DNA from: an uncultured Flavobacteriaceae bacterium
GTDB lineage: Bacteria; Bacteroidota; Bacteroidia; Flavobacteriales; Flavobacteriaceae
NCBI GenBank assembly: GCA_963704215.1
Contig: CAVPHK010000007.1
Location: forward strand, 10,823-74,822
Direction of reading: 5' to 3'
Length of the DNA stretch: 64,000 bases
Within the stretch, counting starts at the first letter, position 1, and every line of letters begins with the position of its first letter. Of this stretch, positions 2-29,198 are shown in pieces. Both the position numbers and the translations under genes were made by a program. A model generated the notes under the pieces. The model was not told the DNA's origin. It searched no databases and worked only from the letters and a program-made list of their open reading frames with translations.

Positions 2-238
2 AAAATTAAAAGTGATTATATCACGCATATTCCATTAAGCGAACTTAAAAAGTCGGTTCACAAAATAGATTCTGAAAAACAAAAAGTTATTTTTTGCCAG
101 TCAGGAATACGAAGTAAACAAGCTGTTTCAGTATTAAATAAATTAAATATTTTAAACTGCTATAGTATTAAAGAAAGTGCTTTCGAAGTAAAAGCATTTT
201 TAGAACAACATCAAAAAGCATTAACAAATGACAGATAA
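2..238 (+). CDS. 3' end of MoeB/ThiF-family protein (C-terminal rhodanese domain), truncated by window edge
   Basis: Frame 2 reads ...HIPLSELKKSVHKIDSEKQKVIFCQSGIRSKQAV...TNDR* with the rhodanese CxSGxRS loop. It overlaps the moaE start. Confidence 0.7.
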   Translation, partial: KIKSDYITHIPLSELKKSVHKIDSEKQKVIFCQSGIRSKQAVSVLNKLNILNCYSIKESAFEVKAFLEQHQKALTNDR

Positions 239-671
239 AAAACCAAAAAGCGTATTCAAACAAGGAGCTATTTCTTCAGAATTTATTGGAGAATCCATCG
301 CAAAACATCAAACCAAAACCAGTATTGGTGCGCACAATATATTTTTAGGTCAGGTGAGAGCTGATGTAATTGATGGAAAGACGGTTGCTGCCATAGAATA
401 TACCGCTTATGAAGATATGGCTAACCAAAAGTTTCACGACATTCGAGAAGCGGCTTTTGAAAAATTTGAATTAACCTGTATGCACATTTATCACAGTTTA
501 GGCACTGTAAAAGCAGGAGAAATTTGCTTATTTGTATTTGTGTCTTCACCTAGACGAAAAGTAGTTTTTAAAGCATTAGAATATATAGTTGAAGAAATTA
601 AAGCACATGTCCCCGTTTTTGGAAAAGAGATTTTTGAAGACGACACACATCAATGGAAGAAAAACACGTAA
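228..671 (+). CDS. moaE: Molybdopterin synthase catalytic subunit
   Basis: FLGQVR, IEYTAYEDMA, HSLG and VPVFGKE motifs; moa operon context. Confidence 0.93.
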   Translation: MTDKKPKSVFKQGAISSEFIGESIAKHQTKTSIGAHNIFLGQVRADVIDGKTVAAIEYTAYEDMANQKFHDIREAAFEKFELTCMHIYHSLGTVKAGEICLFVFVSSPRRKVVFKALEYIVEEIKAHVPVFGKEIFEDDTHQWKKNT

Positions 672-677
672 GTGTTT

Positions 678-717
678 TGTGGAATCGTTAATTTGTTTAA
701 TTGTTAAATCGTAAATA
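678..717. repeat. Left octamer array (YGTTWAAT x5) upstream of the four-helix-bundle gene
   Basis: tgtggaat cgttaatt tgtttaat tgttaaat cgtaaata in 8-bp register. Confidence 0.75.
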
Positions 718-1082
718 TGGCATACACGTTTGCATCTGAAAAACTAAATGTTTGGATTGATTCTAAGGAACTAGTTAAAATAATTTATACAATCACGAAG
801 GATTTTCCCGGTGAAGAAAAATTCGGATTAACAAATCAATTAAGAAGAGCTTCGGTTTCGATTGCTTATAATTTAGCAGAGAGCACATCAAGAAATACCA
901 GTAAAGATAAAGCTCATTTTACATCTTTATCGTTTAGTTCATTAATGGAAGTACTAAATCAAATAATAATTGCAAGAGAATTAAATTATATTAAAGAAAA
1001 TAATTATCAATTAATTAGAACCGAAATTGAAAAAAATTCTAATAAGTTAAACGCTTTACGAAACTCACAATTAAACAGTTAA
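717..1082 (+). CDS. Four helix bundle protein (23S rRNA intervening-sequence protein family)
   Basis: EKLNVW, FPGEEKFGLTNQLRRASVSI and NLAES family motifs. Confidence 0.92.
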   Translation: MAYTFASEKLNVWIDSKELVKIIYTITKDFPGEEKFGLTNQLRRASVSIAYNLAESTSRNTSKDKAHFTSLSFSSLMEVLNQIIIARELNYIKENNYQLIRTEIEKNSNKLNALRNSQLNS

Positions 1083-1101
1083 ACAATTCAACGCATCAAC
1101 A
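1070..1101. repeat. Right octamer array (ATTWAACR x4), reverse complement of the left array
   Basis: attaaaca gttaaaca attcaacg catcaaca. Confidence 0.75.
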
Positions 1102-1105
1102 TATA

Positions 1106-2017
1106 ATGGTAGATATCACACATAAAAGCACAACATTACGAACCGCGGTAGCACAAGCTATTGTGAAAGTCAGCAAACCCGAAACCATAATCGCCATTCA
1201 AAACGATTCGGTTCCAAAAGGCAATGTATTTGCCATGAGTAAAGCCGCGGGTTTATTAGGAGTAAAAAGAACACCTGATATTTTACCAGATTGCCACCCC
1301 TTGCCTATTGAATTTACTAGTGTTGAATACGAAATAGACGAATTAGAAATAACAGTAATTTTCACCGTAAAAACTATTTACAAAACAGGTGTTGAGGTTG
1401 AAGCAATGCATGGTGCCAGCGTGGTTGCTTTAAACATGTACGACATGCTGAAACCAATAGATAAAGGAATCGAAATTCATCATATAAAATTATTAAACAA
1501 AAAAGGTGGTAAATCGGACTTTAAAGACAGGTTTAGAAAAGATTTAACTGCTGCTGTTATAGTGTGTTCCGATACAATTTCGGAGGGACATAAAGAAGAT
1601 AAAGCAGGAAAAGCCATTATTGAAAAATTAGAAACTTGCGAGGTAAACGTTGAAGAATACATCATAATTCCAGATGAAAAAGACATCATTCAGGAAAAAG
1701 CAAAAATGTATCAAAGTCGGGGCATCGATTTAATAATATTTACAGGAGGTACTGGACTTTCGACAAGAGATGTTACCCCAGAAGCGCTTACACCGCTATT
1801 AGACAGACGCATTCCTGGTATTGAAGAAGCGATTCGTAATTACGGTCAAGACAGAACCCCATATTCGATGCTATCTAGGAGTATTGCGGGTACTCTTAAA
1901 AACACTTTAATACTGGCATTACCTGGATCAACCAATGGTGCAAGTGAATCTATGGATGCTATTTTTCCTTCGGTATTACATATTTTCAGAATTTTAAAAG
2001 GAGCCCGACACGATTAA
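1106..2017 (+). CDS. moaC: Bifunctional MoaC / MoaB-MogA molybdenum cofactor biosynthesis protein
   Basis: MVDITHK, LPDCHPL and KTGVEVEA (MoaC) fused to TGGTGLSTRDVTPEA and LPGS (MoaB/MogA). Confidence 0.93.
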   Translation: MVDITHKSTTLRTAVAQAIVKVSKPETIIAIQNDSVPKGNVFAMSKAAGLLGVKRTPDILPDCHPLPIEFTSVEYEIDELEITVIFTVKTIYKTGVEVEAMHGASVVALNMYDMLKPIDKGIEIHHIKLLNKKGGKSDFKDRFRKDLTAAVIVCSDTISEGHKEDKAGKAIIEKLETCEVNVEEYIIIPDEKDIIQEKAKMYQSRGIDLIIFTGGTGLSTRDVTPEALTPLLDRRIPGIEEAIRNYGQDRTPYSMLSRSIAGTLKNTLILALPGSTNGASESMDAIFPSVLHIFRILKGARHD

Positions 2018-2018
2018 A

Positions 2019-2084
2019 CGTTTATTCGTGGAATCGTTTAGTCGTTTAACCGATTACACAATTCAACGATTCAACAATTAAACA
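2019..2084. repeat. Empty octamer-array element (left and right arms, no gene)
   Basis: cgtttatt cgtggaat cgtttagt cgtttaac cg attacaca attcaacg attcaaca attaaaca; shares exact 11-mers with both flanks of 717..1082. Confidence 0.75.
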
Positions 2085-2094
2085 GAGCAAAGAA

Positions 2095-3102
2095 ATGAAC
2101 AAAAATAAAAACATATTACAAGATTTACATGGTAGGAACCATGCCTATTTACGCATTTCACTAATAGAACGCTGTAATTTACGTTGTTCATATTGTATGC
2201 CAGAAGAAGGCGTTCAATTGTCGCCTAAAAGTCATATAATGACCTATGAAGAAATCTATGAAATAGCAAAAACGTTCGTCAATCATGGGGTTACTAAGAT
2301 TAGACTCACCGGTGGAGAGCCCTTAATTAGAAAAGATATTCCTGTTATATTAGAAAAACTGGCTACGCTACCAGTTGAATTATCTATTACCTCGAATGCT
2401 GTAATAATTGACAAATTTATTGATGTATTAAAACAGAATAGCGTTAAAAAAATAAATATTAGTCTAGATTCATTAGACAAAAATAAATTTCATCAAATTA
2501 CCCGTCGCGATCAATTCGAAATCGTTTATAAAAACATGCTGCTTTTAGTAGAAGAAGGTTTTACAGTAAAAGTAAACGTGGTGCTAATGAAAGACTTTAA
2601 CGAGAATGAAATCATTGATTTTATAAACTTAACCAAAGAGCTTCCAATAGTGATTCGATTTATAGAATTCATGCCCTTCGATGGCAATAAATGGGATTTA
2701 AGCAAAATGGTGTCTTATAAAGAAGTGATGGAATATGTAAATGCCTCTTTTCCAGAAAACCAAATTGAGAGGCTCCAAGATGCTCCAAATGATACGTCCA
2801 AGAATTATAAAATAACTGGTTATCAAGGCAGTTTTGCTATTATTAGTTCTGTTACCAACCCATTTTGCGACTCATGCAATAGACTGCGTTTAACCGCAAA
2901 CGGTCAATTAAAAAACTGTTTATTTTCTTCCGAAGAATCCGATTTATTAACTAAACTTCGTGAAGGAAAATCTATTGAGCCTATCATTCAAAAAGCAGTT
3001 CAGGCGAAGTTTAAAGTGCGTGGAGGTATGGATACGTTAAAAAAATTACAAAAGCCTAAACTCCACAATAACAATAGAAGCATGATTACTATCGGCGGTT
3101 GA
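2095..3102 (+). CDS. moaA: GTP 3',8-cyclase
   Basis: Radical SAM motif CNLRCSYC, second cluster motif FCDSCNRLRL...C, C-terminal IGG. Confidence 0.96.
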   Translation: MNKNKNILQDLHGRNHAYLRISLIERCNLRCSYCMPEEGVQLSPKSHIMTYEEIYEIAKTFVNHGVTKIRLTGGEPLIRKDIPVILEKLATLPVELSITSNAVIIDKFIDVLKQNSVKKINISLDSLDKNKFHQITRRDQFEIVYKNMLLLVEEGFTVKVNVVLMKDFNENEIIDFINLTKELPIVIRFIEFMPFDGNKWDLSKMVSYKEVMEYVNASFPENQIERLQDAPNDTSKNYKITGYQGSFAIISSVTNPFCDSCNRLRLTANGQLKNCLFSSEESDLLTKLREGKSIEPIIQKAVQAKFKVRGGMDTLKKLQKPKLHNNNRSMITIGG

Positions 3103-13412: not shown

Positions 13413-13419
13413 AACTATT

Positions 13420-13459
13420 AGTTTATTCGTTTATCTGTTTATTTGTTTATGCGTTTGAA
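13420..13459. repeat. Solo octamer array (YGTTTATT x5)
   Basis: agtttatt cgtttatc tgtttatt tgtttatg cgtttgaa directly upstream of nirD. Confidence 0.65.
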
Positions 13460-27907: not shown

Positions 27908-29198
27908 TCTTCTAAAACCTGTCGCATTGCTTTGGCTTTAACCAAACATTCTTCATATTCTTTATGTGGGTCGCTTTTAGCTGTAATGGCGCCACCTACA
28001 GAGTAAGAAATGTATTTTTTTGTTTCATTATATAAAATACTGCGTATCACCACATTAAAATCGAAATCGCCTGTAGGCGAAAAATAACCAACAGCGCCAG
28101 AATAAAGTCCGCGTTTAGTTTCTTCTAAAGCTTCAATAATTTTCATTGCTGAAATTTTTGGCGCGCCGGTCATGCTTCCCATCGGGAAGGTGCTTTTTAT
28201 AATATCGATAGGATGCATAGATGATTCTACTTTTGATTTAATGGTTGAAATCATTTGATGAACCTGATCGAATGTGTAAATTTTACAAAGTTCTTCAACC
28301 TCAACACTGCCTTTAATGGCTGTTTTAGATAAATCGTTCCGCACCAAATCTACAATCATGATATTTTCGCTGCGTTCCTTATTATTATTCAACAAATCGG
28401 TTTTTAGTTTTAAATCTTTTACTTTATTTAAAGAACGTTTTGCAGTTCCTTTTATGGGTTGTGAAACGATTGTTGTCCCTTCCTTTTTTAAATAGCGTTC
28501 TGGAGAGGCAGACAGCAAATACTTATCGTTACACTTTAAAAATGTTGCAAATGGCGGGTTAGAAATAGCATTAAGCTTGTTGTATGTTTCTAACGGATTA
28601 ATTTCGGTGTTTTCGGCATAAAACTCCTGACAAAAATTAGCTTCATAAATATCACCGCGATGAATATGAGCTAGCATTTTGTTTATTTTTTCGAAATATT
28701 CGTCTTTGTGAATACGGAGTTTTATTTTGATGGGATTGTTGACTTTGTTGATATGTTGATTCGTTGATCTGTTTAATCTCTTTCAAATCATTTTCAAAGG
28801 CATCATCAACCATTTTTAAATACTGCATTTCAACCTTATTTCCTTTAATAAAGAATAGTTTTTTTGGTTGAAAAAAATATAAATCTGGAAATTCCAATCC
28901 GTCGAAATTACTGGATTTTAAATTTTCAACAGCATTTTTTAAATCATAAGTCAGATATCCAAAAATCCAATCTTTTGATAGTGTTTGATACTCCTTTAAT
29001 TTGTCAAAAGCTTGCAAAAAAATCGGTTTGAATACTAGTAAACGCGTCAACCGCCAAAACTGCATCATAATTAGAATAATTTTGTTGATAGTTGTTAGAA
29101 TCTAACCATACTACGTCATCAAATTGCTGGCTCCAAATTAAAATCTGATGCTTAAAGTTATTAATATCTTCTGCGATATGGCTAAATGTTGTTCTCAA
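27904..29198 (-). CDS. pabB: Aminodeoxychorismate synthase component I (two frameshifts)
   Basis: WLDSN, FGYLTYDLK, GDIYEAN, SPERY, PIKGT, SENIMIVDLVRNDL, FPMGSMTGAPK across three ORFs. Confidence 0.85.

Follow-up and report, generated by a model that had tools for sequence, protein, structure and literature searches.

Inverted octamer arrays around a four-helix-bundle gene in a flavobacterial moa operon: candidate protein-binding arms of an operon-junction cassette

In the moa operon of an uncultured Flavobacteriaceae bacterium, a small gene lies between the moaE-like gene and moaCB, enclosed by arrays of short tandem repeats that face each other, and the following junction, between moaCB and moaA, holds a similar pair of arrays with no gene between them. 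The locus raises the questions of what the arrays are, how the gene came to lie in the operon, and how the filled and the gene-less copies are related. On the reading that we prefer, to which we assign a probability of about 50%, the arrays (arms) would be inward-facing DNA sites for the encoded Avd-like protein, and the cassette would spread by lateral replacement at operon junctions. The window, which is the whole stretch of 64,000 nucleotides that was analysed, contains the following features.

228–671, plus strand: moaE-like host gene, upstream of the cassette (below the NCBIfam cut-off, E 1e-13)
661–678, plus strand: 7-bp inverted repeat enclosing the moaE stop codon, at the left edge of the cassette (read from the sequence)
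677–716, plus strand: left arm, four octamer units and a degenerate fifth, reaching up to the ATG
717–1082, plus strand: four-helix-bundle gene, PF05635/TIGR02436, 121 aa, lineage A, predicted S23p/Avd fold
1070–1101, minus strand: right arm, four opposite-strand octamer units overlapping the last codons and the stop of the gene
1106–2017, plus strand: moaCB host gene, with the filled element ahead of it and the empty one behind
2019–2084, no strand: gene-less octamer arm pair (four units, 2 nt, four inverted units)
2095–3102, plus strand: moaA host gene, following the empty element
13419–13442, plus strand: solo octamer array of the same arm family, right-arm-like, just ahead of the start of a minus-strand gene
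28745–28777, plus strand: solo octamer array of the same arm family, within a long intergenic stretch

The inverted arrays with an 8-nt period around the PF05635/TIGR02436 gene, and the gene-less pair at 2019–2084, had been described in an earlier note on this DNA, and both were confirmed in the sequence. The two 11-mers shared exactly by the filled and the empty copy also lie where that note placed them (679–689 = 2028–2038 and 1083–1093 = 2058–2068); each occurs twice in the window, and they occur 4 and 5 times, respectively, in the genome. As for the five left units that it had counted, those starting at 677, 685, 693, and 701 are good octamers, and the fifth, at 709, is present in degenerate form only. 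The right arm ends 4 nt ahead of the moaCB start, and the whole cassette is 430 bp.

The consensus first given for the units, YGTTWAAT, proved too narrow, as the strict matches number 2 in the left and 1 in the right arm of the filled copy, and 0 and 1, respectively, in the empty copy. Across relatives, the consensus is T-Y-G-T-T-D-A-W; the arm units are degenerate rather than perfect, yet are kept at 8-nt spacing: of 69 start-to-start distances, 48 are 8 nt and another 16 are 16 nt. Both arms independently share one logo, in which C is avoided exactly where G-U pairing would be permitted, and their polarity is fixed, with G exceeding C in the left arm at 28 of 36 loci and C exceeding G in the right arm at 33 of 36. 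The arrays lie far above what chance would produce. A three-unit matrix scan of the genome gave 50 raw matches, as compared with 1 in block-shuffled DNA; the matrix was built from these arms, and the four arms themselves are counted among the 50 matches.

The encoded protein scored 107.9 bits against PF05635 (cut-off 33.8) and 101.4 bits against TIGR02436 (cut-off 24). The profile search returned four-helix-bundle families only, with no transposase (DDE, HUH, or serine/tyrosine recombinase), and, to our knowledge, neither a catalytic motif nor a partner enzyme is known. The predicted model of the product (pLDDT 97) was superimposed on the pentameric Xcc0516 (2GSC), the sole matching sequence with a solved structure, with a TM score of 0.94 and an rmsd of 0.9 Å, on BT_0352 with a TM score of 0.80, and on Avd with a TM score of 0.78 at a structural-alignment identity of 6%. 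The match to Avd bears out the Avd-like fold proposed earlier; the score for the Avd family itself (NF033474) was 25.1 bits, under the cut-off of 80. From its similarity to the pentameric 2GSC only, the lineage-A protein is expected to assemble into a pentamer like that of Avd. Purifying selection acts on it (dN/dS 0.05–0.17 across 10 pairs), and broken copies account for 3 of the 16 filled lineage-A loci and 1 of the 14 lineage-B loci. The PF05635/TIGR02436 family is carried by 52 of the 61 genomes sampled at the level of Bacteroidota.

The association of such arrays with the four-helix-bundle family, which the earlier note had proposed to follow through the genome, was observed at all 8 loci at which the 9 PF05635 matches of this genome lie. 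Each of these loci has inverted periodic arms with a different 6–8-nt word, and all of them sit in sense between co-oriented protein-coding genes, none in an rRNA gene; the host junctions other than the one described here are presumably rfbB–rfbA, ffh–folD, groES–groEL, atpA–atpG, hisH–hisA, batC–batD, and an efflux pair. Among 795 genes that lie between co-oriented genes, as called by a simple ORF caller, flank complementarity (z ≤ −3) together with 6–8-nt periodicity on both sides was found for 7 of 7 family genes and for 0 of 788 other genes, at thresholds that were set after data inspection, and the eighth family locus, tested separately, gave a z of −3.1. With wider windows, the test was positive for 9 of the 30 loci from the phylum, 20 of the 80 from the clade search, and 1 of 200 controls, and the link between the arms and the family across the phylum is strong, yet not universal. 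The own right arm was the best inverted partner of the left arm at 15 of 36 loci and among the top three at 19 of 36, as compared with 5 of 36 in a direct-orientation control. Both neighbours had the same orientation as the cassette in 27 of 30, 36 of 36, and 45 of 50 cases; among small genes, this held for 544 of 899.

Of the eight loci described above, three (contigs C10:771824, C4:227432, and C12:258332) are frameshifted or stop-carrying and retain their arms. On a cyanobacterial plasmid (NZ_CP054697.1; L247:377–745), a copy lies antisense between two ribonucleotide-reductase genes, and the polarity of its arms, GGGAGTA/TACTCCC, tracks the small gene, not the operon.

For lineage A, proteins found elsewhere keep the octamer, the mean number of shared 5-mers being 41 at an identity of at least 55%, 35 at 45–55%, and 20 below, and the arm similarity drops with protein identity (Spearman 0.68 over 85 rows, among which kin are not independent). 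Beyond lineage A, the tracking of protein by word is weak and was seen at an identity of at least 60% only, where 7 different-site pairs shared 37 on average, versus 22–27; an overall correlation between word similarity and protein identity was absent in 630 pairs. Each lineage of the protein has one word, which is retained at different junctions, most clearly in lineage A.

The junctions of the operon were compared at 113 moaCB loci. From 300 family genomes, the best 100 of 145 matches were taken; 14 loci from the genus, this one among them, were added, and one duplicate was removed. At moaE–moaCB, where, as elsewhere, the states were assigned by eye, 45 loci were bare, 16 held lineage A, 14 held lineage B, which is about 25% identical to lineage A and has heptamer arms, and 12 held empty A-type arms; the others were part-deleted A (3), nested (1), other (20), or without moaE in the stretch (2). 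At moaCB–moaA, 12 loci held the empty octamer pair, 56 were bare, 39 held other short inserts, and 6 stretches were without moaA; the filled state was found at 0 of 107 loci, where the largest gap was 255 nt. The comparison agrees with the earlier proposal that filled and empty states both exist, and the 45 bare loci establish that the gene is not a constant member of the moa operon.

The states are spread over the moaCB tree, on which lineage A requires 14 changes, at least 8 of which are forced by starred branches, and lineage B requires 12, at least 5 of which are so forced. The two closest relatives of this genome hold lineage B. Of two sister genomes, one (G307) is B-filled and the other (G311) holds a double empty A element, and the two differ by 7 mismatches in the final 30 nt of moaE, as compared with 0–4 per 30 nt elsewhere. 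When four further junctions were compared in the sisters, both flanks were obtained for three, all of which exhibited similar swaps, involving cassettes, empties, other inserts, and bare gaps. Distinct lineages are in competition for one and the same junction. Co-conversion tracts were not found past 9 nt of moaE or about 15–45 nt of moaA, where the background is saturated; the short flank tracts at the swaps could, alternatively, result from erosion of ordinary recombination tracts.

The last three codons of moaE tend to match the cassette type: a Lys in the moaE tail was observed at 9 of 16 lineage-A loci, 0 of 45 bare loci, and 0 of 14 lineage-B loci. This Lys may have been carried with the cassette or copied within the small inverted repeat at 661–678. 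The same inverted repeat is present again in several lineage-A copies, and the Lys-for-Val change that accompanies it was seen only alongside A-type or unclassified inserts. A one-codon extension of moaE, considered as an insertion scar, was rejected because bare alleles are equally long.

Deletion intermediates were observed at three loci (L152, L158, and L041), one of them joined via a short direct repeat inside the ORF. These part-deleted copies show that gene-less arms derive from filled ones by internal deletion. At another site (L258:574–1154 versus L280), sisters hold different four-helix-bundle ORFs within the same arm type, and one of the two carries an additional 165-bp palindromic insert. 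Some junctions hold stacked elements (L067, L069, L073, and L057), in which either a filled cassette is followed directly by an empty pair or one empty follows another.

With respect to mobility, every lineage-A protein at an identity of at least 70% sits at moaE–moaCB, whereas at 45–69% identity the clade is found also at other junctions with the same octamer, indicating that relocation took the gene and its arms along as one, and was rare. No near-identical copies were found at separate sites: within G307 or G311, which have 22 family matches each, the maximum nucleotide identity was 74% (36 loci). No recent transposition was detected. When 42 junctions in the filled or empty state and 45 bare ones were looked over by eye, no consistent direct repeat was seen at the two ends, which old insertions could have lost. 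The distances of the gene and of moaCB correlate (Mantel r 0.89, n = 11; 0.61, n = 8), and the conflict between the two trees gave p-AU values of 0.024, 0.055, 0.078, 0.026, and 0.10, two of the five being significant; much of the inheritance is therefore vertical. Taken together, these comparisons portray a cassette that stays in place for long, is lost often, and comes back laterally to the junction it had occupied. As for the small mobile unit that had been postulated, its movement would be slow and mostly same-site.

Carriers and excision products were also looked for. There were 0 matches in 50,697 phage records, and 27 plasmid records matched, each at less than 60% identity. In the contigs of 4 of 20 listed sequencing runs, which drop rare variants, no clean same-strain joint was found; the joints across the cassette always hold 14–15 other letters, and represent bare alleles of other strains.

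The gene-less copy at 2019–2084 had been taken for the empty state of its filled neighbour, a reading that the comparison does not support in this simple form. Its left arm is 75–97% identical to same-site empties of other genomes, versus 66–78% to filled arms, and the site is filled at none of the 107 loci. As a whole, it is 70–95% identical to same-site empties; the identity is 55–68% with empties of other sites and 55% with shuffles. Within one moaA clade, the empty copy is 87% identical in 28 pairs, as compared with 37–43% for the fourfold sites of moaA and moaCB, and in 38 other pairs the values are 77% and 34–36%, respectively. Because it was never seen filled and is conserved far above neighbouring silent sites, the empty copy is old rather than newly derived from the filled copy next to it, and it is probably under selection. 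A single origin on the moaA tree, which is a quick tree, was rejected (p-AU 0.0005), with starred branches forcing just 2 changes, and one distant genome evidently received the empty copy along with moaA. A multicopy MITE was considered and rejected, since the 22-nt signature of the empty copy was found no more than once in any of 301 genomes.

Such conserved empty arms would be unexpected in a purely selfish remnant, and they would favour a different explanation, in which the element is a domesticated regulatory module: the protein on its arrays would tune the downstream operon genes, the arms would serve as translation-start and regulator sites, and the turnover would be ordinary transfer and deletion without drive. 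The purifying selection on the protein and the lack of recent transposition would fit this explanation, as would the solo right arms, which often stop a few bases short of a start codon, like the TAACTGA repeats (PMC4679880, in its accessible part). However, 45 of the 113 loci have no insert at all, unrelated lineages with different words occupy the same junction, the host genes are functionally unrelated, the number of matches varies from 1 to 22 per genome in one genus with many copies broken, and in 7 of the 12 genomes with the empty copy the filled lineage-A gene is absent at the neighbouring junction. We consider a regulatory module unlikely for these reasons.

A further possibility, which the earlier note had raised, is that the arms act as RNA. 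The element would then be an intervening sequence in the mRNA, in which the arms pair and RNase III frees the gene as in 23S rRNA, the empty copy being a processing hairpin. The 23S rRNA element of the same family indeed has heptamers, terminal inverted repeats, and RNase III cutting (PMC4990558, in its accessible part), the cassettes are nearly always in sense, and in the predicted fold the arms pair so as to enclose the gene, although the z of the whole cassette is only −1.3, versus −2.5 for the empty copy. If selection acted on a helix in the transcript, G-U pairs should be tolerated and A-C pairs should not. The ratios of sense G-U to its mirror class in six sets were 13:15, 5:8, 23:30, 28:29, 8:17, and 4:3, so that a sense excess is absent in five of the six, and the pooled ratio was 81:102 (107 of 135 loci, weak best alignments being excluded), in contrast to 19:1 in the tRNA acceptor stems of this genome. 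Most arm mismatches are transversions and lie at fixed positions of the unit, 6 and 8, and the sense duplex is stronger than the antisense duplex in just 5 of 16, 3 of 14, and 17 of 36 cases.

Pairing of the left arm with its own right arm was scarcely better than with that of another genome at the same site (−22.9 versus −22.5 kcal/mol, p 0.30); the ungapped own-arm score within one site was 17.3 versus 16.3 (p 0.03), and over 33 loci of mixed sites the own-arm preference was significant (p 0.0007), as expected from site lineages. The covariation term of the alignment was +0.16, which might be weakened by the ability of periodic arms to pair in any register, and the Rfam covariance models, including Gut-1 and Flavo-1, gave 0 matches up to E 5 in the window region 600–2200. 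The wobble and covariation signature of an RNA stem is therefore absent, and one cyanobacterial copy is antisense to its neighbours; an mRNA intervening sequence appears rather unlikely.

The single logo in both arms and the missing wobble signature instead indicate a degenerate protein-binding word placed in inverted orientation, and only DNA offers such an inverted word in the same reading at both ends. The arms are therefore read as likely DNA binding sites for the encoded protein, in keeping with one of the two roles that the earlier note had suggested for them. By analogy, the known relative Avd, which binds RNA, and the related rRNA element, which is cut as an RNA stem, would argue against DNA sites, and the RNA of the arms may incidentally pair and be cut alongside.

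In a non-autonomous retroelement, a borrowed reverse transcriptase would receive the RNA of the cassette from the Avd-like protein, and the resulting cDNA would be recombined into junctions. The structural likeness to Avd, the very short flank tracts at the swaps, and the sense orientation would suit this, whereas the PF00078 reverse transcriptase gave no match in this 87%-complete genome or in 4 of 5 high-copy genomes, the Avd family score is 25 bits against a cut-off of 80, and no RNA-stem signature is present, making a retroelement very improbable. Passive simple repeats, born by slippage beside an ordinary accessory gene, could account for the perfect slippage-expanded single arrays seen at these junctions and for the A+T-rich DNA, but are largely refuted, and hardly credible, given the inverted geometry with fixed polarity, the degenerate units at 8-nt spacing, the matrix scan, the restriction of the arms to the PF05635 family, and the word that follows the protein lineage.

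The preferred reading, of DNA arms and lateral replacement, starts from the established anatomy, the sense orientation at operon junctions, the four alternative junction states, and the conservation of the arms. The host transcript would express the four-helix-bundle gene, and the protein ring would bind the 4–5 units at each end of its own DNA, with roughly one unit for each of the 5 subunits. The bound protein would bring together or protect both ends, with host recombination doing the chemistry, and binding would favour entry of the cassette into the gap between the stop and the start codon in relatives; relocation to new junctions would be rare. Deletion of the ORF would leave the arms, of which the A/C-rich right arm would then act as the start region of the next gene. 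The copy at 2019–2084 would accordingly be placed as an old gene-less derivative that selection may have preserved for two roles, as a binding site and as the region where moaA translation starts.

Several known systems resemble parts of this element; the sources cited for them by PMC number or DOI are drawn on for the portions available to us. The S23p intervening sequence of 23S rRNA has heptamers ahead of the start codon and is excised by RNase III (PMC4990558). The cassette shares with it the protein family, a length of about 430 nt, terminal inverted repeats, tandem units before the ATG, a patchy distribution, lateral transfer, and ORF decay (PMC4990558). In contrast to the S23p sequence, it lies in protein-coding operon junctions, at many unrelated sites per genome and with lineage-specific words, its gene-less arm pairs persist, and its arms are degenerate and without wobble bias; in the rRNA element, by contrast, RNase III cuts a nearly perfect stem of 28 bp (PMC4990558).

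The homology of PF05635 and Avd has been noted (PMC10053308), and the same four-helix fold is found in Avd of diversity-generating retroelements (PDB 4DWL, 8UB7). Avd is a pentamer in which all five subunits bind nucleic acid, in the crevices between them, gripping flipped-out bases (10.1101/2023.10.23.563531); the pentamer here is a predicted one. Unlike in a diversity-generating retroelement, there is no reverse transcriptase, template, or variable repeat, and the neighbours are moa genes. IS elements with MITE derivatives, and RAYT/REPIN systems, also combine an autonomous-looking copy with gene-less derivatives, inverted ends, and intergenic locations. Unlike these, the element encodes neither a transposase nor an HUH domain and exhibits no recent multicopy spread, mainly undergoing same-junction replacement; by eye, a target-site duplication was not consistently seen, although old insertions could have lost theirs. 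It departs from rRNA intervening sequences, diversity-generating retroelements, and IS/MITE elements on their defining features.

Comparable intergenic short tandem repeats are the cyanobacterial STRRs. In Geobacter metallireducens, paired opposite-strand arrays of 3–5 tandem 7–8-nt units lie between operon genes, and one listed repeat family has the consensus TWGTTGAY (PMC2700814). They were read as protein-binding DNA sites, of IHF/HU-type global regulators, and the available text contains no filled/empty comparison (PMC2700814). A link to a four-helix-bundle gene was found neither in the text of PMC2700814, nor in part 1 of 3 of its Table S4, nor in 13 of its 19 supplements by term search. 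Intergenic heptamer runs of the TAACTGA type end just before start codons, with a carrier not known (PMC4679880); like the arms, they are short tandem units before a start codon and patchy across phyla, but they are described as solo direct repeats without a gene, whereas here the repeats are arms or leftovers of a cassette. The accessible portions of PMC5524665, PMC2996986, PMC3543383, and PMC2864571 hold no link between the gene and the repeats. Within a limited reach into subscription journals, no literature tying the gene to flanking operon arrays was found, and Geobacteraceae supplements could hold one; the cassette clearly exemplifies an operon-junction form of the S23p element, one that is apparently undescribed so far.

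A wider hypothesis, which is tentative and which we regard as possible rather than probable, is that PF05635 proteins drive widespread enzyme-less homing cassettes. The ring would read its own 6–8-base word, one per subunit, at both ends of its gene and borrow host recombination to occupy the short gap from a stop codon to the following start codon, lineages would displace each other at a shared junction, and the gene-less leftovers would be the intergenic heptamer and octamer arrays of many phyla as well as the source of ORF-bearing rRNA intervening sequences. The cassette as read here would provide a testable ligand and a likely life cycle for a very large protein family of unknown function, and would join three puzzles: the S23p rRNA intervening sequences, the paired intergenic 7–8-nt arrays, and the origin of Avd. 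Lineages A (octamer) and B (heptamer) at one junction offer a ready cross-specificity comparison, and the family would be a natural library of modular repeat-reading rings, provided that every lineage is specific for a word of its own.

Some minor observations concern arms at other places. Single arms have grown into long perfect 7- or 8-nt runs at moaCB–moaA in six loci (L013, L028, L031, L147, L158, and L187) and, likewise, into a long perfect tandem run at moaE–moaCB in one (L184), which suggests that solo simple-sequence repeats descend from such arms. Outside the window, this genome holds further gene-less A-type arm pairs between co-oriented genes at C1:327103–327176 and C1:334144, junctions that we take to be hisG–hisD and lpxD–efp, respectively. 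Hybrid leftovers, with the left arm of one word and an A-type right arm, lie at C6:61846 and C11:33719; at the first of these junctions, relatives appear to carry a lineage-A gene. At C13:23111–23426, also outside the window, a 105-aa gene lies within a non-periodic, G+C-rich inverted repeat, pieces of which are found at other intergenic sites as well; this gene presumably resembles a GIY-YIG nuclease.
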